Shown: piece after piece, positions 24,064-57,248 of the stretch
How positions within the stretch are numbered: the stretch's first letter is position 1
How the letters are laid out: each line of letters starts with the position of its first letter
Origin: Candidatus Peregrinibacteria bacterium
Lineage (GTDB): Bacteria; Patescibacteriota; Gracilibacteria; Peribacterales; Peribacteraceae
Length of the DNA stretch: 64,000 bases
Assembly: GCA_016186175.1 (NCBI GenBank)
Contig: JACPMB010000015.1
Span: 1,116 to 65,115, forward strand
Direction: 5' to 3'
Position numbers and translations under genes: made by a program
Notes under the pieces: generated by a model
Seen by the model: only the letters and a program-made list of their open reading frames with translations
Databases searched by the model: none
What the model was told of the DNA's origin: nothing

Positions 24064-24071
24064 TTCCTTAA

Positions 24072-24239
24072 GGAACCTCTGAAAAATGCCTCCTGCTTCG
24101 TCAGCTGCGCCAAAATTTCGCTCAACGTATGCCGATACGCCTCGCGAAATTTTGGCTTGCTTCCTCGCATGAGGCGATTTTTGAGAGGTTCTTTCCCATC
24201 GTGATGTTTTGGTGATGCGTATCATTTTGCAGAGGTTCC
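24072..24239 (-). repeat. 168-bp MITE-like palindromic element, copy B (inverted relative to copy A)
   Basis: 3 mismatches to 1361..1528. It fills the gap between the convergent rplA and dus stops. Confidence 0.85.
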
Positions 24240-35483: not shown

Positions 35484-35574
35484 GAAGGTGTTGGCGCCTA
35501 TACAAATGATCTCAGTGCTTGAAAAACCACTTGCCGCGGTGGATTCGGGCACTTTGGCAAAGGTGGAAGAAATT

Positions 35575-35649
35575 TGGAGCGGGTGAGCGGAATCGAACCG
35601 CCCTTCCCAGCTTGGAAGGCTGGTGTAATGGCCACTATACGACACCCGC
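35575..35649 (-). tRNA. tRNA-Gly (anticodon TCC), CCA encoded
   Basis: Reverse complement GCGGGTGTCGTATAGTGGCCATTACACCAGCCTTCCAAGCTGGGAAGGGCGGTTCGATTCCGCTCACCCGCTCCA, with anticodon loop CTTCCAA. Confidence 0.85.
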
Positions 35650-35677
35650 AAATAAGGAGGAGGCGCTTTGCCACCCG

Positions 35678-36868
35678 ATGACGATAGCAAAAGCCAGCAT
35701 TTTCTCAATCCTCGACGGTCTTGTTTCAAACTTGTTTCGAATAACAAATCTGACTGCTCCGGAAAAAACGAAAAACCGCTATCCTGCTGCGGTGAAGAGC
35801 CGATACCATCGCATCGTCGTGAAAGTCGGCACCAACGTGCTTACGAAACAGAGCGGCCTGCTCGACGAAGCCGTGATGGCCTCTCTCGTGCGACAGATAA
35901 TCAAAGCGCGCGAAAGCGGCGCGCAGGTGATTCTGGTTTCATCCGGCGCGATGGCGGCGGGCCGCGCGATCGTTCAGCCGGCCAGAAAGTTGAGCAACGT
36001 AGAGGCGCGGCAAGTGCTCGCAGCAGTCGGACAGGCCGAACTGATACACCTGTACGGGTCGCTCTTCCGTAAACAGAACGTCGCCTGCGCGCAGGTGCTC
36101 GCGACCAAGGAGGACTTCCGTGACAGGCGGCACTACCTGAACATGCGCGATTGCCTGTCGGCGCTGCTGCAAGAAGGCATTGTTCCGGTCGTTAATGAGA
36201 ACGACACTGTGTCCATCGGCGAATTGATGTTCACCGACAACGACGAGCTCGCCGCATTGATCGCCTCGATGGTTGGAGCGGACGCGCTGCTCCTGCTGAC
36301 GAGCGTGGACGGGATTCAGATTACTGGGAGCGATGGGATGACGACTGTGCTGAAGACTGTTGCGAGCGAGAGCGACTGGAAGGATCATATTCGCAATGAA
36401 AAATCCTCTTTCGGGCGCGGAGGCATGCAAACGAAGTGCCGCAATGCGCAGAAGCTGGCCGGTCTGGGCATCGCCACGCACATCGCGCGCGGGACGGAAC
36501 CGGATGTAATCATAAAGCTGCTCGCTGGAAAGGAGCTCGGGACGACATTCCCGGCAAAAAATACGACTTCGAGCGTCAAGCGCTGGGTCGCCGAAGGAGC
36601 GGGAAAGGAGAAGGGAGTCGTCACCATCAACCGCTGCGCGTGCGATGTTCTCACGGAAACCGGGAAAGCAGTCAGTTTGCTCCCCGTCGGAGTCGTGAAG
36701 ATCGAAGGATCATTCTCAAAAGGCGATCTCGTACGCATACGCGGCGAGGACGGCTGTGAAGTCGGGCTGGGAATCACACAATATTCTTCCAATGCCGCCA
36801 AAGTAGCGATCGGCAAAAAGGGACAGAAAGCCCTTATACACTGCGACTATCTCCATCTTTTTTCATGA
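35678..36868 (+). CDS. proB: Glutamate 5-kinase with C-terminal PUA domain
   Basis: ..RIVVKVGTNVLT.., ..VILVSSGAMAAG.., ..VPVVNENDTV.., PUA ..GDLVRIRGEDGCEVGLGITQYSS... The ORF track start (35519) runs through the tRNA, so the first ATG after it is used. The start is uncertain. Confidence 0.85.
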   Translation: MTIAKASIFSILDGLVSNLFRITNLTAPEKTKNRYPAAVKSRYHRIVVKVGTNVLTKQSGLLDEAVMASLVRQIIKARESGAQVILVSSGAMAAGRAIVQPARKLSNVEARQVLAAVGQAELIHLYGSLFRKQNVACAQVLATKEDFRDRRHYLNMRDCLSALLQEGIVPVVNENDTVSIGELMFTDNDELAALIASMVGADALLLLTSVDGIQITGSDGMTTVLKTVASESDWKDHIRNEKSSFGRGGMQTKCRNAQKLAGLGIATHIARGTEPDVIIKLLAGKELGTTFPAKNTTSSVKRWVAEGAGKEKGVVTINRCACDVLTETGKAVSLLPVGVVKIEGSFSKGDLVRIRGEDGCEVGLGITQYSSNAAKVAIGKKGQKALIHCDYLHLFS

Positions 36869-37653
36869 AAGACATCATCGCGATCATCGGGGCCGGGAAC
36901 ATGGGCGCCGCGTTCTACAGAGGAATGCGCGAGCACATGATGCGCGTCCGCCTCAACGTGTGTGACCGCAACCGCGAGAAACTCGAAGGGCTGGACGCGG
37001 ACCACGCGTACACGGATCCTGCGAAAGCGATCGCCAATACAGACGTCGTGCTGCTCGCTGTTAAGCCGCAATCCGCCACGGAGCTCCTCGCTTACCTCTC
37101 CGGCGGGCTGGCCGGCCGGCTCGTCATTTCCGTCATGGCCGGCGTCAGTCTGGATTCCATGAAAAGCATGACGCGCAGCGCTGCCGTTATACGCGCCATG
37201 CCGAATCTTCCGGCGCGCGAGGGCCGCGGGCTGACGGGGTGGATCGCATCCAGCGGCGTTACCGCGAAACAGCGGGCGCTCGCGCGCGAACTGTTTCTCG
37301 CAGTCGGACGCGAGATCGAAGTGGATGATGAGACCATGATGGATGCCATCACCGCTTTGAGCGGCTCCGGACCTGCTTATTTCTGCCTGATAGCGGAGCT
37401 TTTGGCGTCGAAAGCTATAAAGGAGGGATTCACGGAAGCGCAAGCCGCGTTAATCGCGCGCGAAACTCTGATCGGCAGCGCGATGCTTCTCGATTCCAAC
37501 TCCGAAACGCCTTCGCATCTGCGAGCGGCAGTCGCATCAAAAGGCGGGACGACCGAAGCCGCCTTGCGCGCCCTCGGCGAAAGCGGACTCGACGCGATAT
37601 TCTTCGATGCGATTGACCGGGCGATCGCGCGTTCACGGGAACTGAACATATGA
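36865..37653 (+). CDS. proC: Pyrroline-5-carboxylate reductase
   Basis: MKDIIAIIGAGNMGAA.. (Rossmann fold), ..SKGGTTEAAL... Start overlaps the proB stop (ATGA). Confidence 0.9.
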   Translation: MKDIIAIIGAGNMGAAFYRGMREHMMRVRLNVCDRNREKLEGLDADHAYTDPAKAIANTDVVLLAVKPQSATELLAYLSGGLAGRLVISVMAGVSLDSMKSMTRSAAVIRAMPNLPAREGRGLTGWIASSGVTAKQRALARELFLAVGREIEVDDETMMDAITALSGSGPAYFCLIAELLASKAIKEGFTEAQAALIARETLIGSAMLLDSNSETPSHLRAAVASKGGTTEAALRALGESGLDAIFFDAIDRAIARSRELNI

Positions 37654-38900
37654 AAGCCATCATGTCCGCACTGGCAAGAACCAAGACTGCGTGCAAAACA
37701 CTGGGAATGCTTCCAGAAAATAAAGTGAATGCCGTTCTTAAGGGCGTCGCGAGCGCTCTTATGAGAGAACAAAAGGAAATTCTTGCCGCGAACGCCAACG
37801 ATCTCAGTAGGATGAACGAAGATGATCCGCGGTTCGACCGCCTGGCTTTGAGTCCCGCGCGTCTTGCGGGAATCGCTGGTGACATGAAGCGCGTTGCCGC
37901 ACTCCCATCGCCGCTCGGGAGGATTCTGGAAGAACGTACTCGCCCGAACGGACTCCATCTGACCAAAGTGAGCGTGCCGCTCGGCGTGATCGGCGTCATC
38001 TACGAAGCGCGGCCGAACGTCACAGCGGACGTCTTCGCGCTCTGCTTCAAGTCCGGCAACTCGTGCGTGCTGAAGGGTGGACGCGACGCGCGACATTCAA
38101 ATCGGGCTCTCGCCGCCGTCATACGCGGAGCGCTGGAAAAACACGGCATTGATCCGGATGTTCTTCTGCTTCTACCGCCGGATCGCCGTTCCGCATCCGC
38201 TTTGATGACCGCACACGGGATGGTTGACGTGCTCATACCGCGCGGAGGCCGGTCGCTCATTGAGCATGTCAGGAGGAACGCCAGGATTCCAGTGATTGAA
38301 ACCGGCGCCGGGATAGTCCACACATACATTGACGCGAGTGCAGACGTGAAAAAAGCCGCAAAGATAGTCTTTAACGCCAAAACCCGCAGGCCCGGCGTAT
38401 GCAACGCCCTCGATACACTCCTGATCCACCGTTCGCTTGCTGGCAAGCTGCCAGAGATTGTCGCACCTCTGCTGCGAAAGCGCGTATTGATATTTGCGGA
38501 CGACGCCGCCTTCGGCGTCCTCAAAAAAGTGTGCGATCCGGCGCTTTTGAGGCGCGCGCAACGGCGTCACTTCGGCGTGGAATTTCTGTCGCTCAAAATG
38601 TCAATCAGAACAGTCAAGAATCTTGACGAAGCGCTTGCGCACATCGCCCGGTACGGATCGCGGCACAGCGAAGCTATCGTCGCGCGTGATAAAAAAATCA
38701 TCGGGCGATTCCTGTACGAAGTTGACGCCGCCGCGGTATATTCAAATGCCTCCACCACGTTCACGGACGGGGCTCAATTCGGCATGGGTACGGAGATCGG
38801 CATAAGCACGCAGAAAATCCACGCGCGCGGCCCGATGGCATTGCCTGAATTGACAAGTTATAAATGGATCGTGCGCGGGCGCGGGCAAGTGCGTCCGTAA
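37650..38900 (+). CDS. proA: Gamma-glutamyl phosphate reductase
   Basis: ..GVIGVIYEARPNVT.., ..SGNSCVLKGG.., ..GVCNALDTLLIH.. (catalytic Cys). Start overlaps the proC stop. Confidence 0.9.
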   Translation: MKAIMSALARTKTACKTLGMLPENKVNAVLKGVASALMREQKEILAANANDLSRMNEDDPRFDRLALSPARLAGIAGDMKRVAALPSPLGRILEERTRPNGLHLTKVSVPLGVIGVIYEARPNVTADVFALCFKSGNSCVLKGGRDARHSNRALAAVIRGALEKHGIDPDVLLLLPPDRRSASALMTAHGMVDVLIPRGGRSLIEHVRRNARIPVIETGAGIVHTYIDASADVKKAAKIVFNAKTRRPGVCNALDTLLIHRSLAGKLPEIVAPLLRKRVLIFADDAAFGVLKKVCDPALLRRAQRRHFGVEFLSLKMSIRTVKNLDEALAHIARYGSRHSEAIVARDKKIIGRFLYEVDAAAVYSNASTTFTDGAQFGMGTEIGISTQKIHARGPMALPELTSYKWIVRGRGQVRP

Positions 38901-40457: not shown

Positions 40458-40994
40458 ATGACAGCTCGGTTGATCCTCGTGGACGCAGCGAACGCCGCGG
40501 TTGGACTGGCTTCGTGGGAAGATGTTCATGCTTTCCCGGAAGGCAGGCTGCATCGCGCCTTTTCGGTCTACATTTTCCGGAACAACGGAGCGGAAATCCT
40601 CGTCCAGCGGCGCAGCCAGTCGAAACTGTTCGCCGGTCTCTGGGCTAATGCCTGCTGCAGCCACCCGCGTGAAGGCGAAAACGACATGATGAAAGTTGCC
40701 GAAAGGAGATTGAACGAGGAATTGGGATTCGCCTGCCATCTCAGTTCCCGCGGGAGCTTCGTCTACCGCGCGGAGGATCCTGCCGGCCGTGGCGCGGAAT
40801 ACGAACATGTGACGCTGTTTAGTGGAAACACTGATGACGTCAATGTTAAGGCTGATCCTCGTGAAGTGATGGAATGGAAATGGATGAACATGGAGAATCT
40901 CCAGAAAGACATGGCAAAGAATCCTCAACAGTTTGCGCCATGGTTCCATATCGGACTGGAACAACTGTTGGAAATGAGCGCGATGAATAAATAA
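40458..40994 (+). CDS. idi: Isopentenyl-diphosphate delta-isomerase, type 1 (Nudix)
   Basis: ..LHRAFSVYIF.., ..LWANACCSHPREGE.., ..EYEHVTLF... Start at ATG 40458 (MTARLILVD). Confidence 0.85.
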   Translation: MTARLILVDAANAAVGLASWEDVHAFPEGRLHRAFSVYIFRNNGAEILVQRRSQSKLFAGLWANACCSHPREGENDMMKVAERRLNEELGFACHLSSRGSFVYRAEDPAGRGAEYEHVTLFSGNTDDVNVKADPREVMEWKWMNMENLQKDMAKNPQQFAPWFHIGLEQLLEMSAMNK

Positions 40995-41017: not shown

Positions 41018-41698
41018 ATGGTCGAATCCTCACTCCTCCACCTCGCCATAATCCCCGACGGCAACCGCCGGTGGGCGAAAAAACGCAGGCTCCAGCCATG
41101 GAAAGGCCACGAGACCGCCATCGAGAAATTCCGTTCGATCACCGAATGGTGCCGCAAGGATCCGCGAGTGGGAATCCTGACAGTCTGGTGCTTCTCGACT
41201 GAAAACTGGAAACGCGACAGCAAGGAAATCTCCATGCTGATGGAGATATACGAAAAGTATTTGCGACAAGAGCGCAACGGATTCATCGAGCATAAGACGC
41301 GCTTTATCCATTCCGGCCGCCGCGATCGCATCCCTAAGTCTCTTTCCGCACTCATAGAAGAGGTGGAGGATGCAACCAAGAATCAGACGGAGTTCATTCT
41401 CAACCTCGCGGTGGATTACGGCGGCAAAGATGAATTGATTCGCGCGATTAGGAAGCTAAGGCAGCCGGATAGCGTCACAGAGGAATCATTTCGGCGCCTC
41501 CTGGATCACCCGGAGCTGCCCGACGTGGACATGATCATCCGCACGAGCGGCGAGCAGCGTACGAGCAATTTCTTCATGTGGGAGACTGCGTACGCAGAAT
41601 GGGTGTTCCTCAAGAAACACTTCCCCGAGCTCACTGTGAATGACATAAAGAACGCTGTTGATGAGTTTGCCGGTAGAACGAGGAGATTCGGATCATGA
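41018..41698 (+). CDS. uppS: Undecaprenyl (cis-prenyl) diphosphate synthase
   Basis: ..LAIIPDGNRRWAKK.., ..IIRTSGEQRTSNFFMWETAYAEW.. Confidence 0.9.
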   Translation: MVESSLLHLAIIPDGNRRWAKKRRLQPWKGHETAIEKFRSITEWCRKDPRVGILTVWCFSTENWKRDSKEISMLMEIYEKYLRQERNGFIEHKTRFIHSGRRDRIPKSLSALIEEVEDATKNQTEFILNLAVDYGGKDELIRAIRKLRQPDSVTEESFRRLLDHPELPDVDMIIRTSGEQRTSNFFMWETAYAEWVFLKKHFPELTVNDIKNAVDEFAGRTRRFGS

Positions 41699-42486
41699 AG
41701 AGCACTTCCACCGCCCGCGGCAAGATCATACTCTCCGGCGAGTACGCCGTCGTCTTCGGCTATCCGGGGATCGCCGCGCCTGCGGAGCAATCTGTGACAG
41801 CGACATATGAGAATTCCGGCGCATCGCCGATGAAGATTATTCTGGAGGGAAACGCCGGAATGGAAGAATACGCACGGCGCATCGTCGGCCTCTGTGTGGC
41901 AAAGGGATATTCGAAGACCGGAACCATGGTGATCCAGAATGAGATCCCGCTTGGAAAGGGCATGGGTTCTTCAACCGCTCTAGTCATTGCGTTGAGTAAA
42001 TGCCTTCTTGGAGAAGAAAAAAGAGAGGACGCTCTCCAGATTGAGGACGCCGTGAACCCCGGACACAGCGGGCTCGACTTCGCCGTGATTTGGAGCGGAC
42101 TGCCGATGATCATTCAACGCGGGAAAACTCCGACAGAGGCTCGTGTCGATCTGAGCTTTATCAAGCAGAGCGAATTCATTGATACAGGGACGCCGAACGA
42201 AATCACCGCGGAGCTCGTTGCATGGATGCGTGCGCGCGTGGAGATTCCTGAGGTCTCTGCTGCGCTTAAGACGATCGGCAATTGCACGGAGAGATTGCTC
42301 AATGGCGAATCGCCGATCGCCGTCTTTCGCGACCACCACCGCGCACAGGTCGCGCTCGGCGTGGTGCCGAAATCCGTGCAGGAACTGATAGCCGGCATTG
42401 AGCAGAAGGGCGGCGCAGCGAAAGTGCTCGGGGCGGGGGCGAGAAGCGGAGGTGGCGGAATGGTTCTGTCGCTATTTCTGAGCTAA
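41695..42486 (+). CDS. mvk: GHMP kinase, mevalonate kinase-like (short, 263 aa)
   Basis: ..ARGKIILSGEYAVVFGYPGIAAP.. and ..IPLGKGMGSSTALVIAL.. (GHMP motif II). Start overlaps the uppS stop. Confidence 0.75.
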   Translation: MKSTSTARGKIILSGEYAVVFGYPGIAAPAEQSVTATYENSGASPMKIILEGNAGMEEYARRIVGLCVAKGYSKTGTMVIQNEIPLGKGMGSSTALVIALSKCLLGEEKREDALQIEDAVNPGHSGLDFAVIWSGLPMIIQRGKTPTEARVDLSFIKQSEFIDTGTPNEITAELVAWMRARVEIPEVSAALKTIGNCTERLLNGESPIAVFRDHHRAQVALGVVPKSVQELIAGIEQKGGAAKVLGAGARSGGGGMVLSLFLS

Positions 42487-42497
42487 AATCGTCGTCC

Positions 42498-43470
42498 ATG
42501 CCCACGGCACGATCAACGCCAAACATCGCCTTCGTCAAATACTGGGGCAACCGCAACAATACGCTGCGACTCCCTGCGGCGGATTCGATCTCGATGACGC
42601 TCGATTCCCCTGTGCTGGATGTCGCGATCTCTCATGCGGATCAGATCGTCGTGCGATCGTTCGATGAGCATGAGAATGAAAAGGCACTGACAGAGAAGAA
42701 CGTAACGCGTTTCGGAACCCATCTGGAACTCACAAAGGCATACTTGAAAACTCTCGACGTCCCAGACGCGATCCCCTCTTCTCTTTCCATTACCATCCAC
42801 TCCTCGATCCCGCCCGCGATCGGACTCGCATCCTCCGCCGCGGTTTTCAGCGCGCTTGCGAAAGCAATCGGCTGTCTCATTAGAGAACAGATACCACTGA
42901 GTGATGAACAGATGAGCGTAATCGCGAGGCTTGGCTCCGGCTCCGCGGGCAGGAGTATATACGGGGGCTACGCGGCGCTGATTGCCGGCAGCGGCGAAGA
43001 GATTGACGCCTCATCGGCGATTCAGAGACATCGTCCTTGTCCCGAGCAAGGAGGAGAAGAATGTCGGATCCACCGAAGGTCACGCGGCGGCGTGGACCAG
43101 TCCGCTCTTCGAGGAGCGCTTGAAGCAAATGCCGCGGAGGAATCGGGAGTGCCGCGATGCGATTCTGAAAAAAGATTTTGAGAAGCTGCAGAGGATTGCG
43201 GAGGAAGACGCGCTCGATATGCACCGTGTCATGAAATCGCAGACGCCGTCGCTGAAATATTTGAGCGGGGAAACGCACCGGATTATCCGGGAGATCTCCG
43301 CGCTGCGGGAATCGGAAAAGATTCCAGTCCTCTACACCATGGATGCGGGCCCAACGGTTCATCTGATCTGCACTGATGATTCAATTAGAACGGTGCGGGA
43401 GTTTGCGGAAAGACAAAAAAAGTGCCTGATTTTTGAGACAAAAATCGGCCAAGGGGCGCGGATTCTATAA
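42498..43470 (+). pseudogene. mvaD: Diphosphomevalonate (or phosphomevalonate) decarboxylase, interrupted by a +1 frame change near 43022-43028
   Basis: N-terminal part in frame 0: ..TPNIAFVKYWGNRNNTLRLPAADSISMTL.., ..LGSGSAGRSIYGG... C-terminal part in frame +1 (ORF 42982..43470): ..RDIVLVPSKEEKNVGSTEGH.., ..VLYTMDAGPTVHLI... The junction lies at cagagac. Confidence 0.8.
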
Positions 43471-43490: not shown

Positions 43491-44735
43491 ATGGAACGCA
43501 AACACATTTCCTTGGCTCACATAATCAAGGCACCGGAAAAAGAAGGGCCATTGTCAAAAGGAAAAATGAATTTACGAGACATTCCTTCCGGACTTAGTGT
43601 CGAACAGCGTTGTAACGAGCGGCGCTCTCGACTTGAGAAAGAACTCGATGTGAATCTCTCGCGCTTGCAGCCTGCCGAAGGCGCCATCGGCCACGCCGAC
43701 GAGCGCAATTGTGAGCAGATGATCGGACACGTCCCTCTGCCAGTTGGATACGCAGGCCCCTTGAAAGTACGTTTCAGTTCATCGGAGACGACGTATATTC
43801 ATCTTCCGCTTGCGACGACCGAAGGCGCCCTGATCGCCAGCGTTAACAGAGGATGCAAAGCTCTCAATGCTTCCGGCGGCGTGAAAGCCTCATCCGTTCA
43901 TCATGGAATGTCTCGCTCGCTGGCATTTCGCATCATGAATCATGAATCAAGAATCATGGACAACCTCAAGACAACAGAAAAGCAATGGCGCACGATTGCA
44001 GAATCCACGAGCGCTCATCTCAACGTTCTGCGTTATGAGGTGGATATCGCGGGCCGCCACCTTTTCCTCACGCTGTTCTGCGATACAGATAAGGCCATGG
44101 GGATGAACATGGTGACATTCGCGGCCCAAGCGGTCGGAGAATGGGTCGAGGAGAACATCACCGGACTGGAATTCATCACTGTCGCCGGAAACGTGGACAG
44201 CGACAAGAAGCCCAGCGCGCGCGCGCATGCGAGAGGACGAGGATATGAGGTCGCCGCGGAGGCGACCCTGAGCGCAGAAGTCATTCGCTCTGTTCTAAAG
44301 ACGACGCCAGAAGCTCTCTTGCGCGTTGCGCATGCAAAATTGGAACTCGGTTCAATCATCGCGGGAGCCATAGGGAAGAACCTCCACGCCGCGAATGTCA
44401 TCGCCGCACTTTACCTTGCCACCGGGCAGGATGCCGCACATGTCGTGGAAGGTTCTCTGGCAGATACCCGAATCAGCGCATTATCGAATCATCGGATTTA
44501 CGCTGGCGTCCGCGTTCCGGCGCTATTAGTTGGAATTCGCGGCGGAGGAACCACCCTGCCGGCGCAAGAGCAGTGCCTGAATATGCTCATGCACTCGAAA
44601 ACTTCACTCCATTCCAACGCGCAGTTGTCGGAGTCAATTGGAGCAGCTGTTCTGGCGGGCGAAATCTCGCTGCTTTCTGCGCAGGCCGCACATCATCTCG
44701 CCGGAGCACATCGAAAACACGGACGCGAACGCTGA
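43491..44735 (+). CDS. HMG-CoA reductase, class I-like
   Basis: ..EQMIGHVPLPVGYAGPL.., ..ATTEGALIASVNRGCKA.., ..DKAMGMNMV.., ..IRGGGTTLP.. Confidence 0.85.
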   Translation: MERKHISLAHIIKAPEKEGPLSKGKMNLRDIPSGLSVEQRCNERRSRLEKELDVNLSRLQPAEGAIGHADERNCEQMIGHVPLPVGYAGPLKVRFSSSETTYIHLPLATTEGALIASVNRGCKALNASGGVKASSVHHGMSRSLAFRIMNHESRIMDNLKTTEKQWRTIAESTSAHLNVLRYEVDIAGRHLFLTLFCDTDKAMGMNMVTFAAQAVGEWVEENITGLEFITVAGNVDSDKKPSARAHARGRGYEVAAEATLSAEVIRSVLKTTPEALLRVAHAKLELGSIIAGAIGKNLHAANVIAALYLATGQDAAHVVEGSLADTRISALSNHRIYAGVRVPALLVGIRGGGTTLPAQEQCLNMLMHSKTSLHSNAQLSESIGAAVLAGEISLLSAQAAHHLAGAHRKHGRER

Positions 44736-44786: not shown

Positions 44787-45818
44787 ATGCAGATGTCCCG
44801 TTCAGCCATCATCGGTTTTGGCAGATACCTGCCGAAATACAGGGTGAAAACCTCCGCAATCGCCGAACATCACGGACAGGATCCGGAAAGTATCGCAAGC
44901 GGGCTGGGAATCAGCGAAAAAACAGTTCCCGGACTTGGAGAAGACAGCTGCACAATGGCATTTGAGGCCGCGCGGCAGGCGATCGCCGTCGCCGAAATCC
45001 AATCGTCGCAAATTGGGGCCGTGTTTGTCGGCTCGGAGAGTCATCCGTACGCGGTCAAGCCGACGAGTTCCATGCTGTCCGCCGCTCTCGATCTGCATCC
45101 TTTCTGCCACTGCGCCGATCTGGAATTCGCCTGCAAAGCCGGCACGGCCGCGATGCAGATCGTTGACAGCATGGTGCGGTCGGAACAAGTGAATTTCGGC
45201 ATGGCCATAGGGACGGACACCGCGCAGGGACGCCCCGGGGACGCACTGGAATACACAGCGGCAGCCGGCGCCGCAGCCGTGATCGTCGGGCCGGACAGAG
45301 CGCCTAACGCGTTTTGCCGGATCGAGCACACTATTTCGTTCACGACTGATACTCCGGATTTCTGGAGGCCGGCGGGGGAACGGTACCCGCGGCACGCCGG
45401 ACGCTTTACCGGGGAGCCGTCATATTTCCGGCACGTGCAGGAAGTGACGATGGGCATCCTCGCAATCGCGAAGAGGAAGCCGACTGAGATTGATCACGTG
45501 ATCTTCCACATGCCGAACGCAAAATTCCCGAGGGCCGCGGCCAGGAAGCTCGGATTTTCGGCAGAACAGATGAATCTCGGATTCATCGTCCCCGCCGTCG
45601 GCAACACATACGCCGCCTGCTCCCCCATCGGGCTGACACACGTGCTTGAACGAGCGATGAAAGACGAGATCATTCTACTGGTTTCCTACGGTTCCGGTTC
45701 CGGCTCTGACGCGTTTTTGATGACGATGCTGCGCGACGGCGCGGAGCTTCCTTTGGATGACCGGAAAACCGAATATCTCTCCTACGATCAATATCTGGAA
45801 CACGCTCATGCGATATAG
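44787..45818 (+). CDS. HMG-CoA synthase, short archaeal-type
   Basis: 343 aa. ..AIIGFGRYLPKYRV.., ..VGSESHPYAVKP.., ..DLEFACKAGTAAM.. (Cys nucleophile), ..FHMPNAKF.. Confidence 0.8.
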   Translation: MQMSRSAIIGFGRYLPKYRVKTSAIAEHHGQDPESIASGLGISEKTVPGLGEDSCTMAFEAARQAIAVAEIQSSQIGAVFVGSESHPYAVKPTSSMLSAALDLHPFCHCADLEFACKAGTAAMQIVDSMVRSEQVNFGMAIGTDTAQGRPGDALEYTAAAGAAAVIVGPDRAPNAFCRIEHTISFTTDTPDFWRPAGERYPRHAGRFTGEPSYFRHVQEVTMGILAIAKRKPTEIDHVIFHMPNAKFPRAAARKLGFSAEQMNLGFIVPAVGNTYAACSPIGLTHVLERAMKDEIILLVSYGSGSGSDAFLMTMLRDGAELPLDDRKTEYLSYDQYLEHAHAI

Positions 45819-45848: not shown

Positions 45849-47003
45849 ATGAATTCCGACATACGCCTCATTGGCTACGGCCAAACCCGGTTCGGTGAGC
45901 TTTGGGACATGGGCATCCGTGATCTGATGGAGGAAGCGGCGGATGCGGCGATCTCGTCGGCGCCAATCACAGCCCTCGACATTGACATGATTATCGTGAG
46001 CAACATGCTGGCCGAAATCACGAATGGCCAAGCGCACCTGAGCGCGATCGCCTCAAGCCTGCTTCCCCACCATCCTCCGGCGTTGAGGGTGGAATCCGCT
46101 TGCGGATCTGGCGCATTCGCGCTGCACACTGCCTGCGCGATGCTCGAGAGCGGCCGTGCCCGCAACGTGCTTGTCATCGGCGCGGAGAAGATGACTGACG
46201 TCTCGAACGACATCGTTTCCTCCGCTCTTATGGGAGCCGCAGACGCTGAGCAGGAACGACCTGCAGGACTCACTTTTCCGGGAATCTTCGGCATGATCGC
46301 GCAGAGGTACATGCATGAATACGGGCTTTCGCGAGCGGCATTAAGCCTGGTGAGCGCTGTGCACCACAGGAACGCCTGCGGCAACTCTTTCGCGCAATTC
46401 CGCACCGAGGTGACGCCGGACGATGTTAGCGGGAGTGCGCCGGTGGCGGACCCGTTACGGCTCCTCGATTGCTCTCCAATCAGCGACGGCGCCGCGGCGT
46501 GCGTGCTTTCGACGGATAAAGAAAGTCCGGTGCGGATTGCGGCTTCGCAGATCGCCAGCGATAGTCTGAGCATCGTAGATCGTCCGGTCCTGACGTCATT
46601 TTCGGCGACGAAGGACGCCGCGGAGCGCTCGCTCGCGGAAGCAGAGGTGAAGCTGAAGGACATTAGGATAGTGGAGACTCACGATTGTTTCTCCATCGCA
46701 GCGCTCATCAATCTGGAAGACCTGGGCTTCGCAGATCCCGGCGGGGGCATCCGCTTTTACCGAAACGCATACGAGGGACAGACGGCCGCGCACCGAAGCC
46801 CCGGTGAAGGCGGGGCTCTTGGCGTTAACATGAGCGGCGGATTGAAGGGTTGCGGCCACCCCGTCGGAGCCACCGGCATCAAGCAAATCATTGATGTCGC
46901 CAAACGCTTGCGGGAGACAGGGGAACGATACGGTCTGGCGCATAACTTCGGCGGCGCATGCGCAACGTGCGGCGTACATGTTCTCGAGCATTCTCCATCG
47001 TAA
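45849..47003 (+). CDS. Acetyl-CoA acetyltransferase (thiolase), archaeal/SCP-x type
   Basis: ..RVESACGSGAFALH.., ..MSGGLKGCGHPVGATGI.., ..HNFGGACATCGVHVLE.. Confidence 0.85.
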   Translation: MNSDIRLIGYGQTRFGELWDMGIRDLMEEAADAAISSAPITALDIDMIIVSNMLAEITNGQAHLSAIASSLLPHHPPALRVESACGSGAFALHTACAMLESGRARNVLVIGAEKMTDVSNDIVSSALMGAADAEQERPAGLTFPGIFGMIAQRYMHEYGLSRAALSLVSAVHHRNACGNSFAQFRTEVTPDDVSGSAPVADPLRLLDCSPISDGAAACVLSTDKESPVRIAASQIASDSLSIVDRPVLTSFSATKDAAERSLAEAEVKLKDIRIVETHDCFSIAALINLEDLGFADPGGGIRFYRNAYEGQTAAHRSPGEGGALGVNMSGGLKGCGHPVGATGIKQIIDVAKRLRETGERYGLAHNFGGACATCGVHVLEHSPS

Positions 47004-47027
47004 TTCTTAATTCTTGCTTCTTCGTTC

Positions 47028-47951
47028 GTGACCACCCCTCCGATCCTCCACCGCCGGAATGCCAAACGCCGCAGAAAGATGCAGAACGGCGCAGTGCTCT
47101 CGTGGACGACGATGAGCCATCCTCTTGATGGATTCGGCATTAGGCCGCGGACGGTGGGGCTCATAGAACTTGAAGATGGCACGCGCTCGCTCGGCCAGCT
47201 GCTTGGCGAGCCGCGCATCGGGCAGAAAGTGCGGCCGCGAATGGCCCTCTCGACCGTGAATGCGGACGGGCTGCGCGAGTACGACGTCGCGTACGAGCCG
47301 CTCGTGACCATTGCGTGGAGTCATATCGCGCAGAAGGCGTTCCCCGGCTACATCCTCGCGCTCACAGGGCCCTCCGGCGTCGGCAAGACGACGGTGAGCC
47401 GGATCATCGTGAACATGTTCGGCGAATACGCCGAGGCAGTGCCGATCCTGACGACGCGCTGCGAAAAGGACGGCGACGACGGGGAGTACGCGTACGTGAC
47501 GAAGAAGGAGTTCACGGAAGCAATGAAGATCGGCGACATCGCCTCTTACGCTCGCATCCCCTCCTCCACCGAGGAACGCTGGTACGGCTACCGGCACGCC
47601 GACATCGAGGATATCTGGAAGAAAGGCAAGCTGCCGCTCGTGATCACGGAGATGCACCTGCTGCGCGGGCTCAGCGAGCACTACGGACGCCGATCCATCC
47701 TGAGTTTCGGGCTGCTGCCGCCCGGCAAGAGCCGCCGCGCGATGCTGAGCGCGCTCCTCCACCGCCTGCGCTCCCGCGGCCGCGACGCCGAGGAGCACAT
47801 CAAGGAACGCCTCCAAAACGCCGTGTCGGACCTCGACTTCTTCCGCACAAATGCAGGGTTGTTCAACAAGATTCTGGTGAACGAGGACGTGGACGCAGTG
47901 ATCGCCATGCTCAAAAAGCACGTTCCTGCCTTCGCGGAAGCAAAAAATTGA
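47028..47951 (+). CDS. Fusion protein: DUF35-type OB-fold domain (no zinc ribbon) plus divergent guanylate-kinase-like P-loop kinase domain
   Basis: aa ~18-95, ..GAVLSWTTMSHPLDGFGIRPRTVGLIELEDGTRSLGQLLGEPRIGQKVRPRM.., match the DUF35 C-terminal OB fold. aa ~105-307, ..ILALTGPSGVGKTTVSRII..VPILTTRCEKDGDDGEYAYVTKKEF..WYGY.., match the guanylate kinase pattern GPSGxGK / TTR..G..G..Y.F. It is a single uninterrupted frame. Confidence 0.7.
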   Translation: MTTPPILHRRNAKRRRKMQNGAVLSWTTMSHPLDGFGIRPRTVGLIELEDGTRSLGQLLGEPRIGQKVRPRMALSTVNADGLREYDVAYEPLVTIAWSHIAQKAFPGYILALTGPSGVGKTTVSRIIVNMFGEYAEAVPILTTRCEKDGDDGEYAYVTKKEFTEAMKIGDIASYARIPSSTEERWYGYRHADIEDIWKKGKLPLVITEMHLLRGLSEHYGRRSILSFGLLPPGKSRRAMLSALLHRLRSRGRDAEEHIKERLQNAVSDLDFFRTNAGLFNKILVNEDVDAVIAMLKKHVPAFAEAKN

Positions 47952-51456: not shown

Positions 51457-53139
51457 ATGAATAAGACATGCAGGCAGTGTGCCGCGCCATTCACCGTCGG
51501 CCAGGATGACCTCGCGATGCTGAGCAAGCTCTCGCCCCAGATCGGCGGCAATGTGTACCAGCTGCCGGCGCCGGCCCTGTGCCCCGACTGCCGACTGCAG
51601 CGGCGTCTGGCATGGCGCAACGAACGCGCATTGTACTTCCGCAATTGCGACTCCACCGGCAACCGCATACTTTCGATATTCGCGCCCGACGGCCCATACA
51701 AGGTTTTCCACCATGAAGCGTGGTACGGCGACGGCTGGAACGCTCTGGACTGCGGGCGGCCGTTTGATTTTTCGCGGCCGTTCTTCGATCAATTCATGGA
51801 TCTGATGGAGGCTGTCCCGCTGCTCGCGCTCAATATCATCAGCGTGCAGAATTGCGAGTACGTGAACGAATGTGGATGGTCGAAGAACTGCTACCTCACA
51901 ATCGAGGCAGATCAGAACGAGGATTCGATGTACGGCTACCGCGTGTTTTTCGTCAAAAACTGCGTTGATTGCACCGAAGTCGTCCGATCGCAGCAATGCT
52001 ACGAGTGCATGGATTGCGAGAATTGCTTCAATCTCCGCTGGAGCCAGCTGTGCAAACAGTGCTCGGACTCGAGCTTCCTCTTCGACTGCCGCGGGTGCGC
52101 AAATTGCTTCGGTTGCGCCGGGCTGCGGCAGAAAAAGCACTGCCTCTTTAACGCTCAACTGACGGAAGAAAAGTTCAAATTTCATATGAAAACCTTCGAT
52201 CCATGCAATCCAAGCCATCTGAAGGCCGCACTGGAGCAATTCGAGAAAATAAAATTCTCCGTTCCGCGCAAAGCATTCGTCGGGGAACAGAACGACAATG
52301 TTTCGGGCGGCTACATTTTCCAGAGCAAGAACGCGCACGACTGTTTCAACATCCGCGGCTGCCGTGACTGCAGATACGTGGACTACATCCGCGATAGCAG
52401 GGACTGCATGGATTATTTCGTCTGGGGCGACAAAGCCGAGCAGGTGTACGAAGCCGAGTCCTGCGGGCACAATGTGCAGAACATCCGATTCTGCTGCACG
52501 TGCCTGGAAAACGTTCACGATCTCCTCTACTGCTATCTTTGCGCGCTCGGCACCAACAACTGCTTAGGATGCGTCGGCCTGAAGCGCCAGAAGCACTGCA
52601 TTCTCAACAGGCAATACGCGAAGGAGGAATACGAAGCGCTCGTGCCGAAGATCATCAAACACATGCAGAACTCCGGAGAGTGGGGCGAGTTCTACCCTGT
52701 AAACAACAGTCCTTTCGCGTACAACGAAACGACGGCGCAGGATTACTTCCCGATGACGCAGGAGCAGGCGACCGCGCTCCAGTGGCGCTGGAAGGAAAAA
52801 CTCCCTTCCCATGCCGGAACAGGCAAAGTTGAGCCGGTTCCACATGGTGACATCGCCAACATATCTGATGACGTCACCAAGAAGATATTCGCCTGCGAGG
52901 CGACGGGCAAATCTTTCCGCGTCACCGTCCAAGAACTGCGGTTCTACCGCGACAACCGCCTTCCCCTCCCCCGCTTCCATCCCGATGAACGCCATAAGCG
53001 GCGTATGACCATGAGGAATCCGAGGAAACTATGGGATCGGACGTGCGCGACGTGCAGAACGAAGATACGGACGTCCTACGCTCCCGAGCGGCCGGAGAAA
53101 ATTTTGTGCGAGGAGTGCTATTTGAAGGAGGTCTATTGA
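51457..53139 (+). CDS. Cys-rich repeat protein, paralog 1 (zinc-ribbon termini, two CxxC-repeat modules)
   Basis: 560 aa. N-terminus MNKTCRQCAAPFTV..CPDCRLQRRLAWRNERALYFRNC.., module ends ..CRGCANCFGCAGLRQKKHCLFNAQLTEE.. and ..CLGCVGLKRQKHCILNRQYAKEEYE.., C-terminus ..LPLPRFHPDERHKRRMTMRNPRKLWDRTCATC..YAPERPEKILCEECY.. Confidence 0.8.
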   Translation: MNKTCRQCAAPFTVGQDDLAMLSKLSPQIGGNVYQLPAPALCPDCRLQRRLAWRNERALYFRNCDSTGNRILSIFAPDGPYKVFHHEAWYGDGWNALDCGRPFDFSRPFFDQFMDLMEAVPLLALNIISVQNCEYVNECGWSKNCYLTIEADQNEDSMYGYRVFFVKNCVDCTEVVRSQQCYECMDCENCFNLRWSQLCKQCSDSSFLFDCRGCANCFGCAGLRQKKHCLFNAQLTEEKFKFHMKTFDPCNPSHLKAALEQFEKIKFSVPRKAFVGEQNDNVSGGYIFQSKNAHDCFNIRGCRDCRYVDYIRDSRDCMDYFVWGDKAEQVYEAESCGHNVQNIRFCCTCLENVHDLLYCYLCALGTNNCLGCVGLKRQKHCILNRQYAKEEYEALVPKIIKHMQNSGEWGEFYPVNNSPFAYNETTAQDYFPMTQEQATALQWRWKEKLPSHAGTGKVEPVPHGDIANISDDVTKKIFACEATGKSFRVTVQELRFYRDNRLPLPRFHPDERHKRRMTMRNPRKLWDRTCATCRTKIRTSYAPERPEKILCEECYLKEVY

Positions 53140-53173: not shown

Positions 53174-54850
53174 ATGGAACGATCCTGCACCAAGTGCGGC
53201 CAGACCTTCACCATCCACCCCGATGAACAGGAGTTCGTGAAGAAGATGGTCTTCACGTTCGGGGAGAAAACGATCGCTCTCCCGCTCCCTAAAGAGTGTC
53301 CTGACTGCCGGTTGAAAAACCGCACTTGCTACCGCAACGAGCAGTACCTCTACAAAGTCCGCTCGGCGTTCTCCGGCAAGGACATCGTTTCGATCATGAG
53401 CGAGAAGCCTGTGTGGGGGGAGCCGTATAAGATCTATGATCAGGATGAATGGCGCAGTAACGCGTGGGATCCATTGAGTTACGGGCGGGAGTTTGATGCT
53501 CAGCGTCCGTTCTTTGAGCAGTTCGCGCAACTGCAGAAGAGCGTGCCGCGCATGGCGCTGATCACGTTGGGAAATGAGAATTCCGGCTTCACGACGGGGA
53601 CGGGGTATTGCAAGAATTGCTACCTGATCAACTCCTCGGAGAATTGCGAGGATTGCTACTACGGCAAACTCCTGCAGAAGTGCAGCGACTCGATGGATTG
53701 CAGTTATCTCTATAATTCGCAGCTCTGCTACGAATGTTTCTCCGTTTACGATTCATATAACTGCCAGTGGCTCTCATTCAGCGCCAATTGCCGTGATTGC
53801 TTCTTTGCGAGCAATCTGACGGCCTGCAGCAACTGCTGCCTCTGCACCAATCTTAATCACAGAGAGTACTGTTTCATGAACAAGCCGATGAAGAAGGAGG
53901 AATACGACAAGCGTCTGAAGGAATTTCGCGGATATTTCGAGAGAACGGAACAAATGAAGGAGATTCGACGCAGAATGATGCAAACTATGCTGCGCAAGTA
54001 CGCCAACATCGTGAACTGTCAGGACTGCACCGGCGATTACCTGGAGAATTCGAAGCACTGCCTTGATTGCTACGACGTGAACGAGAGTCAGGACAGTCGC
54101 TATGTCACCGTCGGCGTGAATGTGAAGGACAATTACGACTGCAGCAACATGTATCTGAAGTCTGAACTCTGTTACATGACGCTCGGGACGATTGAAGTCT
54201 ACGGATCCGCCTACTGTTTGTTCGTGTTTCATTCGCAGCGGCTGCTCTTTTGCGACCATTGCTTCAACTGCAGTGATTGCTTCGGATGCGTGGGGCTCAC
54301 GCGAAAGAAGTTCTGCATCTTGAACAAGCAGTATTCAAAGGAAGAATACGAGGAGCTCGTTCCAAAAATCATCACGAATATGGAGAAGTTGGGTGAGTGG
54401 GGGCAGTATTTTCCTACAAAGTATTCTCCTTTCGGTTACAACGAATCCCTCGCTTCGGAGTACTTTCCGCTCTCGGAGAAAGAAGCGAAGGCGCAGGGTT
54501 TCCATTGGCGAGAGAAGGACGCGCGTGACTACAAGCCACAGACGACCGCACTCGCTGACCGGATTGATCAGACGACTGATTCAGTGACGAAGGAAATCCT
54601 CGCCTGTAAGCAATGCACCAAGAACTATCGTGTGATCCCGCAGGAACTCTCGTATTACCAGAAGCAGGTTCTGCCGGTTCCTCATAGATGCCCGGAATGC
54701 CGGCACGCAGATAGGCTGAAGCTGCGCAATCCGCGGAAACTCTGGCGGTGCAAGTGCGCGAATTGCGGGAAAGACATCAACACGACCTACGCTCCCGAGC
54801 GGCCGGAGAAAATTTTGTGCGAGGAGTGCTATTTGAAGGAGGTCTATTGA
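53174..54850 (+). CDS. Cys-rich repeat protein, paralog 2
   Basis: 558 aa. MERSCTKCGQTFTI..CPDCRLKNRTCYRNEQYLY.., ..CFNCSDCFGCVGLTRKKFCILNKQYSKEEYE.., ..LPVPHRCPECRHADRLKLRNPRKLWRCKCANCGK..YAPERPEKILCEECY.. Confidence 0.8.
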   Translation: MERSCTKCGQTFTIHPDEQEFVKKMVFTFGEKTIALPLPKECPDCRLKNRTCYRNEQYLYKVRSAFSGKDIVSIMSEKPVWGEPYKIYDQDEWRSNAWDPLSYGREFDAQRPFFEQFAQLQKSVPRMALITLGNENSGFTTGTGYCKNCYLINSSENCEDCYYGKLLQKCSDSMDCSYLYNSQLCYECFSVYDSYNCQWLSFSANCRDCFFASNLTACSNCCLCTNLNHREYCFMNKPMKKEEYDKRLKEFRGYFERTEQMKEIRRRMMQTMLRKYANIVNCQDCTGDYLENSKHCLDCYDVNESQDSRYVTVGVNVKDNYDCSNMYLKSELCYMTLGTIEVYGSAYCLFVFHSQRLLFCDHCFNCSDCFGCVGLTRKKFCILNKQYSKEEYEELVPKIITNMEKLGEWGQYFPTKYSPFGYNESLASEYFPLSEKEAKAQGFHWREKDARDYKPQTTALADRIDQTTDSVTKEILACKQCTKNYRVIPQELSYYQKQVLPVPHRCPECRHADRLKLRNPRKLWRCKCANCGKDINTTYAPERPEKILCEECYLKEVY

Positions 54851-55586: not shown

Positions 55587-57248
55587 ATGCCGACCTGCGC
55601 AGAGTGCATTCAATCGTTCGCGATCACCGATCGCGACCGCGCGTTCTACCGAAAAATGGACGTTCCTCCCCCGAAATCCTGTCCCGACTGCCGATTCATG
55701 CGCAGACTCGCGGAGCGCAACGCGAGAACGCTTTACAAAAGGAAGTGCGACCTTACCGGCAGGGAATTCATTTCGCCGTACCACCCGGATCGGCCGTTCC
55801 CTGTCTACCACCCCGACACATGGTGGGGCGACGGATGGGACGAGACGGCATACGGACGCAGCGCCGACTTCTCGCGTCCGTTCTTCGACCAACTCGGCGA
55901 ACTCCTGAATGAAGTTCCGCACCAGGGGCAGTTCGTCGTGCCGGGAACCATGCAGAACAGCGACTACGTGAACTGCGCTGGGTATCTGAAGGATTGCTAC
56001 CTGATCGCGGAAACCGACTACAACGAAAACTGTTACTACGGTAATCGTATCTTCTACAACAAGGCAATGGTTGACTGCAGCAACGTCTACGAGAACGAAC
56101 TCTGCTACGAGTGCATTGATTGCCGCAAGTCGTACGGGCTCAAGTTCTGTGAGGAGTGCGAAAACTGCAGCGGGAGCTTCTTCCTCAGTAACTGCATCGC
56201 CTGCCGCGACTGCATCAGCTGCATCAACCAGCGGCAGAAGCATCACATGATCATGAACCAGCAGCTGACTGAGGAGGAATACGAGAAACGGAAGGCCGCG
56301 CTGGAGCTGAACACATATGACGGCCTCCAGAAGATGCGGCGGGATGCCGACGAGTTCTTCCTAACCCAGCCGCACAAAGCCGTCCAGAATGAGCACAACG
56401 AGCGTTCGACGGGCAATCATCTCTATAATTCCAAGGATTGCGAAGACTGCTACGACTGCAAGGATGTGGAAGACTGCGTCCACTGCGCTCGAGTGTTCTC
56501 GGTGAAATCGTCCATGGATTACACGTCGTGGGGCGACCGGTCGGAGTTGATGTACCAGTGCGCGTCGAGCGGCGACCGGGCGTACAATCTCAAATTCTGC
56601 ACGACGTGCACCACCGGGAATAGCAACCTCGAGTACTGCGCTCGCTGCTCGGAATGTTCAGACTGTTTCGGCTGCGTAGGCATGCGGAAAAAGAAGCACT
56701 GCATCTTCAACAAGCAATATTCCAAAGAAGAGTACGCGAAACTCCGGGACCAATTGATTACGCGCATGAAACAATCAGGTGAATGGGGAGAATTTTTCCC
56801 AAAATCCCTCTGTCCGTTCGCGTACAACGAAACGATCGCCATGGAATATTTTCCGCTTGCGAAGGAAGAGGCTCTCAAACGCGGATACGCGTGGAGGGAT
56901 CCGGTGGATGATCCGCCGAATGTCCCCCGCACGATTTCCGCGGAGCAATTGCCGCAGACGATCGTCGAAGTTTCCGATGACGTCCTGAACTGGGCCGTGA
57001 CGTGCCCGGTCACCGGACGTCCATTCCGCATCATCAGACAGGAACTCGCTTTCTACCTGCAAATGGACCTGCCGCTCCCGCGCAAGCACCCCGATCAACG
57101 CCATGCCGAACGGATAGCGCGGCGCTCCGGCGTCCGGATGTACTCCCATGCATACGCGAAGTGTTCACGGGATATTCAAACGACCTACGCTCCCGAGCGG
57201 CCGGAGATCGTGTATTGCGAACCTTGTTATCTTAAAACAGTCTACTGA
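55587..57248 (+). CDS. Cys-rich repeat protein, paralog 3
   Basis: 553 aa, 38 Cys by my count. MPTCAECIQSFAIT..CPDCRFMRRLAERNARTLYKRKC.., ..CSECSDCFGCVGMRKKKHCIFNKQYSKEEYA.., ..GEWGEFFPKSLCPFAYNETIAMEYFPL.., ..LPLPRKHPDQRHAERIARR..YAPERPEIVYCEPCY.. Confidence 0.8.
   Translation: MPTCAECIQSFAITDRDRAFYRKMDVPPPKSCPDCRFMRRLAERNARTLYKRKCDLTGREFISPYHPDRPFPVYHPDTWWGDGWDETAYGRSADFSRPFFDQLGELLNEVPHQGQFVVPGTMQNSDYVNCAGYLKDCYLIAETDYNENCYYGNRIFYNKAMVDCSNVYENELCYECIDCRKSYGLKFCEECENCSGSFFLSNCIACRDCISCINQRQKHHMIMNQQLTEEEYEKRKAALELNTYDGLQKMRRDADEFFLTQPHKAVQNEHNERSTGNHLYNSKDCEDCYDCKDVEDCVHCARVFSVKSSMDYTSWGDRSELMYQCASSGDRAYNLKFCTTCTTGNSNLEYCARCSECSDCFGCVGMRKKKHCIFNKQYSKEEYAKLRDQLITRMKQSGEWGEFFPKSLCPFAYNETIAMEYFPLAKEEALKRGYAWRDPVDDPPNVPRTISAEQLPQTIVEVSDDVLNWAVTCPVTGRPFRIIRQELAFYLQMDLPLPRKHPDQRHAERIARRSGVRMYSHAYAKCSRDIQTTYAPERPEIVYCEPCYLKTVY

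Follow-up and report, generated by a model that had tools for sequence, protein, structure and literature searches.

Results

The mevalonate gene block ends in an OB::guanylate-kinase-like fusion gene

A 64,000-nucleotide stretch of Candidatus Peregrinibacteria DNA (contig JACPMB010000015.1 of assembly GCA_016186175.1, positions 1,116 to 65,115), hereafter called the window, carries a block of mevalonate pathway genes that is closed by a single open reading frame (ORF) joining a DUF35-type OB module to a guanylate-kinase-like (GK-like) domain. We analysed this fusion protein, its relatives and their gene neighbourhoods, and describe it here as a candidate for a kinase missing from the isoprenoid pathway of these bacteria, which may be an isopentenyl phosphate kinase (IPK) on a guanylate kinase fold. 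The ORF and its two parts are as follows.

47028..47951, + strand: DUF35-type OB::guanylate-kinase-like fusion ORF, 307 aa, uninterrupted from the GTG start at 47028 to the TGA at 47949-47951
47028..47300, + strand: DUF35-type module without zinc ribbon, consisting of an N-terminal helix (aa 5-17) and a five-stranded OB fold (aa 21-91), with matches to PF01796 and 6esq
47349..47948, + strand: guanylate-kinase-fold kinase domain, aa 108-307, with matches to PF00625 and, by Foldseek, to 1gky and 1lvg

An initial annotation, made from the letters of the window, had described one uninterrupted DUF35::GK-like reading frame, and the ORF, its Pfam matches and the lengths of its homologues agree with that description. 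Because these homologues span 302-310 aa, the GTG start at 47028 is supported as well. The protein is 100% identical to a Candidatus Peregrinibacteria protein at NCBI (P0001), and an AlphaFold2 (AF2) model built from 87 homologues reached a mean pLDDT of 88. The fusion is kept in more than 140 Candidatus Peregrinibacteria protein clusters; the same two-domain architecture fills at least the 120 top clusters, at 55-100% identity to the window protein, and its matches far exceed chance. A metagenome scan with a subfamily-specific peptide, which sampled mainly the candidate phyla radiation (CPR), returned 73 loci, 58 of them fused. In the databases, the protein is named 'guanylate kinase' or 'OB-fold domain-containing protein', and a literature search covering 8 million full texts for DUF35, phosphomevalonate kinase (PMK) or IPK tied to guanylate kinase, or for IPK or PMK in CPR, returned no description of it.

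The kinase domain keeps the catalytic residues of guanylate kinases and has a changed acceptor site

Pfam Guanylate_kin (PF00625) covers aa 111-298 of the fusion protein with 43.7 bits (cut-off 25.2). In line with this match, the kinase domain of the AF2 model superposed on GMP- or ADP-bound, closed guanylate kinases with target-normalised TM-scores of 0.86-0.90 (Foldseek; 1gky, 1lvg), and the 50 top Foldseek matches were guanylate kinases throughout, confirming the fold. The gmk equivalog TIGR03263 of NCBIfam scored 74.1 bits, below its cut-off of 160.45, which leaves the domain outside this equivalog; the remaining gmk equivalogs gave 42 bits (cut-off 318) and 34 bits (cut-off 263). An exhaustive HMMER search of 1.84 billion representatives yielded 16 matches at <=1e-30 and, after a sharp drop, ordinary single-domain guanylate kinases at about 1e-13 with 24-37% identity, a few multi-domain guanylate kinase proteins lying between them. 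Judged by sequence, the GK-like family is a distinct subfamily. Its characteristic segments lie at the following positions.

47367..47390, + strand: P-loop GPSGVGKT, aa 114-121, invariant in the family
47445..47489, + strand: acceptor-site segment I140-L141-T-T-R144-x-x-K147...D150...Y154, with the Arg and Tyr phosphate ligands kept, Ser34 replaced by Ile and Arg41 by Lys
47568..47591, + strand: family-specific 4-aa insertion T181-R184 (R184 invariant) followed by W-Y186-G-Y188, with Tyr78 kept and Ser/Thr80 replaced by Tyr
47763..47810, + strand: LID segment R246-L-R-S-R250-G-R...R261, with invariant catalytic arginines

Residues were counted in 112 GK-like family sequences and in a comparison set of 78 diverse canonical-like guanylate kinases, using yeast numbering. 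The P-loop, R144 (Arg38), Y154 (Tyr50), Y186 (Tyr78) and the LID residues R246, R250 and R261 were conserved in 111-112 of the 112 family sequences. In contrast, three other positions differed almost completely between the two sets. At the Ser34 position the family has Ile (111/112), whereas canonical-like enzymes have Ser or Thr (74/78); the Glu69 position holds Ala, Ser or Thr in all 112 family members but Glu in 72 of 78 canonical-like sequences; and the Ser/Thr80 position is Tyr (Tyr188) in 112/112 compared to Thr or Ser in 68/78. The Arg41 position, Lys147 in the window protein, is occupied by Lys in 92 of the family sequences and by Arg in 17. We take Ser34, Glu69 and Ser/Thr80 to be the guanine contacts of the yeast 1GKY GMP complex, and Arg38, Tyr50 and Tyr78 to be its acceptor-phosphate ligands.

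This pattern looks like that of an active phosphotransferase, which would still dock a phosphate-bearing acceptor and would no longer read guanine. Because the guanine-reading residues are replaced by hydrophobic ones, GMP is presumably not selected any more. The features that the initial annotation had picked out, namely the P-loop pattern, the TTR motif with its second Arg replaced (Lys147), the insertion before WYGY (aa 181-184) and the change from YGT to YGY with the invariant Tyr188, are all correct, as is its wider point of a diverged acceptor site, next to which residue conservation suggests an intact catalytic apparatus.

One kinase of the mevalonate pathway has no assigned gene

The fusion gene is the last of eight genes of the block, all on the forward strand, the other seven being as follows.

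40458..40994, + strand: type 1 isopentenyl-diphosphate isomerase (IDI, Nudix), with a start at an internal Met taken from orthologue lengths
41018..41698, + strand: undecaprenyl-diphosphate synthase (UppS, a cis-prenyltransferase), by profile matches
41695..42486, + strand: mevalonate-kinase-like (MVK-like) GHMP kinase, the sole GHMP kinase of the block
42498..43470, + strand: phosphomevalonate-decarboxylase-like GHMP decarboxylase, split here, with a phosphomevalonate decarboxylase (PMD) signature including GSTEGH
43491..44735, + strand: class I HMG-CoA reductase (HMGR), by profile matches
44787..45818, + strand: archaeal-type HMG-CoA synthase (HMGS), NF003274 with 417.7 bits
45849..47003, + strand: archaeal-type acetoacetyl-CoA thiolase, directly upstream of the fusion

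The order IDI - UppS - MVK-like - decarboxylase - HMGR - HMGS - thiolase - fusion recurs in two contigs of about 1 Mb and in many others. Thiolase directly precedes the fusion in every fused metagenome locus with upstream sequence, and also in L001-L019. Fused loci come in two layouts, either with IDI-UppS at the head of the cluster or, in layout B, with UppS divergent upstream and IDI as the next gene behind the fusion. An allylic primer is required by UppS; some relatives (L038, L057, L062, L088) have a trans-prenyl synthase gene between those for UppS and MVK, in the opposite orientation.

No canonical gmk, PMK or IPK was found in the 64-kb window. In agreement with the initial annotation, the block has a single GHMP kinase, the MVK-like one, and its only other GHMP-fold protein is the decarboxylase. 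PMK families, both of the GHMP type and of the animal type (PF04275), are absent among the Pfam, NCBIfam and PDB matches of the fusion. The only amino-acid-kinase (AAK) protein of the window is ProB (35519-36868), and a low-sensitivity screen of about 95 loci for AAK-type ORFs likewise saw only ProB. The proB-proC-proA proline biosynthesis cluster (35519-38900) shortly precedes MgtE and the isoprenoid block, and in L016 a ProB gene is even part of the mevalonate cluster, with the decarboxylase gene on one side and the HMGR gene on the other.

For a genome-wide view, we consulted the supplementary gene table (file 2) of the complete Candidatus Peribacter riflensis genome (PMC4736985), annotated by KEGG-HMM. 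It lists a separate gmk of 200 aa (gene _213, K00942, 157.7 bits) and, right behind thiolase, a 312-aa fusion (gene _643, K00942, 103.7 bits); the idea that the fusion is the sole gmk of its genome was rejected on account of this separate gene. Neither K00938 (PMK) nor K06981 (IPK) is listed, and pyrH was the sole amino-acid-kinase match among the searched annotation terms. With neither PMK nor IPK, one kinase of the pathway is missing, as the initial annotation had suspected for the block when it noted a phosphorylation step without a visible gene. All seven 'Terpenoid backbone' entries of this genome are genes of the cluster; an annotated trans-prenyl diphosphate synthase is absent from the table. 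The authors of the genome paper described a 'near-complete' mevalonate pathway, with genes identified up to mevalonate-5-P and after mevalonate-5-PP (PMC4736985). Within the conserved cluster, no kinase other than the fusion lacks an assignment, and the fusion is the best candidate for the missing isoprenoid kinase of Peregrinibacteria.

The decarboxylase of the cluster resembles phosphomevalonate decarboxylases

Which kinase is missing depends on the decarboxylase. The best PDB matches of an intact decarboxylase orthologue were 6n0x/6n0y with 182.7 bits, whereas classical diphosphomevalonate decarboxylases (DMDs) all scored 124 bits or less. Entry 6n0x is the Anaerolinea thermophila phosphomevalonate decarboxylase with bound mevalonate 5-phosphate (PDB entry). 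In S. epidermidis numbering, mevalonate diphosphate decarboxylases (MDD) carry the signature Tyr18-Lys21-Ile27, and mevalonate phosphate decarboxylases (MPD) have a residue other than Lys at 21 and Arg or Thr at 27 (Dellas 2013, Table 4). The window decarboxylase reads YWGNRNNTLRLP, with the motif KYWG-N-RNNTL-R-LP, i.e. YWGN(21)RNNTLR(27)LP. Among 30 unique decarboxylases encoded next to a fusion, positions 21 and 27 were Asn/Arg in 25 and Arg/Arg in three, and Lys21 occurred in none, in agreement with the MPD signature; the position that is Met in DMDs was His in 26 and Gln in four. The PDB variant 6n0z differs from wild-type 6n0x at two of these positions, by N to K at position 21 and by H to M at the Met position, and we infer that it is the specificity-switched variant from work cited as turning PMD into DMD.

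By these comparisons the decarboxylase of the cluster is PMD-like, and because it is, the unfilled reaction would be the conversion of isopentenyl phosphate (IP) to isopentenyl diphosphate (IPP). The initial annotation had headlined a missing PMK and given IPK in parentheses as the alternative. Its proposal of a missing pathway kinase stands, but the PMK headline, which assumed a classical diphosphomevalonate decarboxylase, probably names the wrong step, since that assumption fails; the parenthetical IPK is favoured instead.

In the window itself two overlapping ORFs share the decarboxylase gene between them. Compared with its intact orthologues (333-337 aa), the gene has lost about 29 nt, including roughly the segment 'IAPEDHWVL', and its frame shifts near 43012-43025. 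Either the assembly of this metagenome-assembled genome (MAG) is wrong here, or the population carries a genuine deletion that inactivates the gene; if the deletion is real, the mevalonate pathway is broken in this genome.

Unfused homologues lie beside enzymes that consume IPP

GK-like genes also occur without the OB module, and UppS and/or IDI adjoins eight of the nine clearly unfused metagenome loci, the ninth being a 1-kb contig. Two arrangements were seen. One group of CPR-like contigs from small genomes carries His_Phos_1 - UppS - [trans-prenyl synthase] - His_Phos_1 - GK-like, with envelope glycan genes behind. The end of His_Phos_1, a member of the histidine phosphatase/mutase superfamily, overlaps the GK-like start in L007 (7870-10651), L008, L010, L022, L024, L037, L084 and L086, and a second copy often lies beyond UppS, so that phosphatase, UppS, phosphatase and kinase form a conserved module. 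In the other arrangement, UppS on the minus strand is followed by GK-like - IDI - [x] - trans-prenyl synthase, the last again on the minus strand, with PAP2 phosphatase and lycopene-cyclase-domain genes nearby. This second arrangement equals fused layout B minus the MVK-to-thiolase block and the OB module, and the IDI proteins of L011 and of L018, where the gene stands behind the fusion, are close relatives. It is found in L011 (1966-8155), L056 and L069, in MAGs labelled Paceibacterota, and raises the question of the source of isopentenyl phosphate in such cells.

No mevalonate (MVA) pathway gene, and thus neither MVK nor a decarboxylase, was seen within 5-10 kb of the unfused GK-like genes in these UppS/IDI-type contexts. 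That the gene is kept next to enzymes which use IPP is easier to reconcile with a kinase step downstream of the decarboxylase than with a PMK, although MVA genes could be elsewhere in those genomes. AAK-type IPK genes of CPR are reported to be commonly syntenic with IDI-1, though not always present (PMC6107057), and the GK-like gene occupies an IDI-adjacent position like the one reported for CPR IPK.

Further standalone genes come from other lineages. In an unrelated high-GC bacterium (L023), a divergent standalone GK-like gene is found at a distance of 8 kb from both an FMN_dh (IDI-2-like) gene and an MPD-like decarboxylase with Cys21, Thr27 and His (YWGCRDEKLTLP and SSRDGH). The three genes lie within 10 kb of each other (L023 1-2001 and 10001-10648), and the bacterium has type IX secretion signals. 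Standalone GK-like genes were also found in Candidatus Kentron MAGs (L009 5804-6439; P0123, P0275, P0320), which derive from gammaproteobacterial symbionts and in which the gene adjoins toxin-antitoxin and sulfotransferase genes.

The N-terminal module is related to the DUF35 subunit of archaeal thiolase/HMG-CoA synthase complexes

Pfam OB_ChsH2_C (PF01796) covers aa 21-71 with 33.9 bits (cut-off 27.1), and a profile search matched the N-terminal module to 6esq_E with E = 9.5e-4. A separate model of aa 1-102 (pLDDT 87) had its best Foldseek matches in 6esq_F/G/E, at an rmsd of 1.8 A over 81 columns, followed by the DUF35 subunits of the thiolase-type complexes 9vbt, 7pxp, 5m3k and 6ok1. Entry 6esq is the Methanothermococcus thermolithotrophicus acetoacetyl-CoA thiolase/HMG-CoA synthase complex with its DUF35 subunit (PDB). 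The archaeal subunit (6ESQ/6ET9) is thus the closest structural match of the module, and gene position adds a second likeness, the fusion gene lying directly behind the thiolase and HMGS genes.

The fusion differs from the archaeal subunit by the added C-terminal kinase and by the absence of the rubredoxin-like Cys4 zinc ribbon. The initial annotation had already noted this absence, and rightly so: aa 1-100 of the window protein are free of Cys, paired CxxC motifs occur in none of the 143 fused homologues, of which 96 contain no Cys at all in the N-terminal part, and the thiolase stop and the fusion start are only 24 nt apart. Because the ribbon is absent, only about 80 of about 128 DUF35 residues align. 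From homology and gene order, the N-terminal module appears to be the counterpart of the small subunit that joins archaeal-type thiolase and HMG-CoA synthase.

Thiolase and fusion share a reading frame at 47001-47030, parted by TAA and eight codons. Readthrough from thiolase into the fusion was considered and rejected: relatives show other spacing, another frame or overlap, and the shared frame therefore looks coincidental.

Other features of the window

Downstream of the fusion are three paralogous ORFs of about 555 aa (51457-53139, 53174-54850 and 55587-57248), with 36-40% mutual identity, 7-8% cysteine and CxxC pairs at both ends, and there may be a link to the cysteine-rich proteins that have been noted in Peribacteria. 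The window also contains a 170-bp inverted repeat pair with 98% identity (1361-1530 and 24070-24239), overlapping the starts of two similar ORFs (1375-1923 and 23956-24225), and short tandem duplications at 6407-6669 and 21682-21984.

Discussion

A P-loop isopentenyl phosphate kinase as the proposed function

Taking the pathway gap and the gene context together, we predict, at about an even chance of being right, that the kinase domain of the fusion is a P-loop isopentenyl phosphate kinase without homology to the known one. Because the decarboxylase is of the PMD type, the most likely pathway runs over MVK and PMD to IP and on to IPP: mevalonate would be converted by MVK to mevalonate-5-P, this by PMD to isopentenyl phosphate, and the kinase domain would then catalyse IP + ATP -> IPP + ADP in place of the AAK-family IPK. 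The kinase would close over ATP and a small phosphate monoester, with Arg144, Tyr154, Tyr186 and Lys147 gripping the acceptor phosphate and Ile140, Leu141, Ala/Ser173, Tyr188 and Ile206 lining the former guanine pocket, while the LID arginines would steady phosphate transfer to give the diphosphate product. The OB module may bind the thiolase/HMGS pair as archaeal DUF35 does, as homology and gene order suggest; more speculatively, the fusion would thereby place the last kinase of the pathway on the complex that starts it.

The wider proposal, to which we give slightly less than an even chance, is that a subfamily of the guanylate kinase fold was recruited as IPK and closes the Peregrinibacteria pathway via MVK, PMD and IPK, being fused to DUF35 there and standing alone beside UppS/IDI in other CPR. 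In these other lineages the standalone form possibly serves the salvage of isopentenyl phosphate without a mevalonate pathway. To our knowledge, the route over MVK, PMD and IPK has so far been demonstrated only in haloarchaea and Chloroflexi.

Compared with known enzymes, the fusion protein is probably a case of non-orthologous displacement by a guanylate-kinase-fold subfamily whose acceptor has changed and which has acquired a new fusion partner. With guanylate kinases (PF00625, TIGR03263; yeast 1GKY, mouse 1LVG) the GK-like domain shares the fold, the P-loop, the LID arginines, Arg38/Tyr50/Tyr78 and presumably the chemistry, the transfer of the ATP gamma-phosphate to a phosphate monoester. 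It differs from them by the lost guanine residues, a Lys in most members at Arg41 and the 4-aa insertion with its invariant Arg, and it coexists with a canonical gmk and sits in isoprenoid gene clusters. The AAK-family IPK (NF040647; archaea, Chloroflexi, plants) has the same proposed reaction, the same place after phosphomevalonate decarboxylase and a common adjacency to IDI. In contrast, the GK-like domain has a P-loop NMP-kinase fold instead of an amino-acid-kinase fold, its activity is predicted and, because it has no AAK match, it could be only a functional analogue. PhnN ribose 1,5-bisphosphate phosphokinase (TIGR02322), a member of the GK superfamily that turns a non-nucleotide phosphate ester into a diphosphate, illustrates that the fold can change its acceptor; its match to the fusion is weak (22.8 bits, cut-off 156), and phosphonate context is absent.

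Alternative functions of the kinase domain

The two alternatives closest to an IPK keep the domain in isoprenoid metabolism. As a non-orthologous PMK, it would leave the diphosphate to the decarboxylase. The Peribacter genome has no annotated PMK of the GHMP or animal type, the acceptor would still be a phosphate monoester, as suits the retained R144, Y154 and Y186, and the invariant R184 together with K147 could bind a carboxylate. Animal PMK (PF04275), likewise an NMP-kinase-fold enzyme, is a precedent for such a P-loop protein acting on a phosphate ester of the mevalonate pathway; it gave no sequence match to the fusion in Pfam and PDB searches, and because the local decarboxylase is PMD-like, the likely substrate differs. 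We consider this function distinctly unlikely in view of that decarboxylase, which has no Lys21, has Arg27 and His for Met, and is 58 bits closer to the Anaerolinea PMD than to any DMD. Moreover, unfused homologues lie beside IDI, UppS or prenyl synthase with MVK and decarboxylase not nearby, and for this reason a PMK would be left there without a substrate unless MVA genes are located elsewhere. Action on another isoprenoid phosphate (dimethylallyl-P, geranyl- or farnesyl-P, or polyprenyl phosphate), feeding or recycling UppS substrates instead of completing the mevalonate route, is unlikely too, but has several observations on its side: UppS is the most constant unfused neighbour, often together with His_Phos_1, PAP2 and envelope glycan genes; the seven 'Terpenoid backbone' entries of Peribacter include no annotated trans-prenyl synthase; and a prenyl chain would be well accommodated by a base pocket with hydrophobic replacements. 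Yet the step from IP to IPP of a PMD-type pathway would then be left without a candidate enzyme, the pocket of a soluble guanylate kinase fold is small for long prenyl chains, and the adjacency to IDI indicates the C5 level.

The remaining alternatives detach the domain from the pathway chemistry. It could still be a guanylate kinase, a second gmk copy that perhaps links the pathway to GTP supply or to regulation. Every annotation pipeline gives it this name, its fold and catalytic residues are gmk-like, the invariant E208 aligns with Asp100, and E182 of the insertion could in principle replace Glu69. However, Ser34, Glu69 and Ser/Thr80, nearly invariant in canonical guanylate kinases, are lost family-wide, the score is under the equivalog cut-off, the complete Peribacter genome encodes a canonical gmk of its own besides the fusion, and the gene context is consistently isoprenoid with no link to purine metabolism, so that a second gmk has very little probability. 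A non-catalytic, ATP-binding module that regulates or scaffolds the thiolase/HMGS complex, similar to the guanylate kinase domains of MAGUK proteins, appears extremely improbable. Such domains did become protein binders through changes near the GMP site (PDB 4f4j title), and the fusion partner of the domain is a known scaffold protein; but unlike MAGUK domains it retains an invariant P-loop and all LID arginines, and standalone forms occur with no DUF35, thiolase or HMGS nearby.

Several observations weigh against an IPK function as well. The substrate preference of the cluster decarboxylase is deduced from similarity and signature residues, and the absence of IPK and PMK is that of a KEGG-HMM annotation of one complete genome. 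D150, E182 and R184, invariant and charged, lie in the remodelled site and are not obviously needed by a purely hydrophobic acceptor. Nor does an IPK function account for the His_Phos_1 gene that recurs, translationally coupled, beside the unfused forms. The standalone genes of Candidatus Kentron have no isoprenoid neighbours, nor has the standalone GK-like gene of one Peregrinibacteria bin (L015), which is beside secY-adk-map. Finally, the surroundings of the unfused genes were covered to 10 kb on each side, and MVA genes could lie farther off.

Significance

For an enzyme that complete Peribacteria genomes have lacked since 2016, the fusion protein is a concrete and cheaply testable candidate. 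Its confirmation would add a new, non-homologous isopentenyl phosphate kinase and would extend the phosphomevalonate decarboxylase route to CPR bacteria, with a bearing on reconstructions of the early mevalonate pathway that score CPR as users of PMK and diphosphomevalonate decarboxylase (DPMD). Hundreds of genomes derived from metagenomes carry the systematic label 'guanylate kinase' or 'OB-fold protein', which such a result would also correct. Engineered pathways for the utilisation of isopentenol or IP could benefit from a P-loop IPK that is compact and soluble. Lastly, the position of the unfused forms next to UppS/IDI gives a hint of the way in which CPR cells without a precursor pathway may supply IPP for the carrier lipid of their cell wall.

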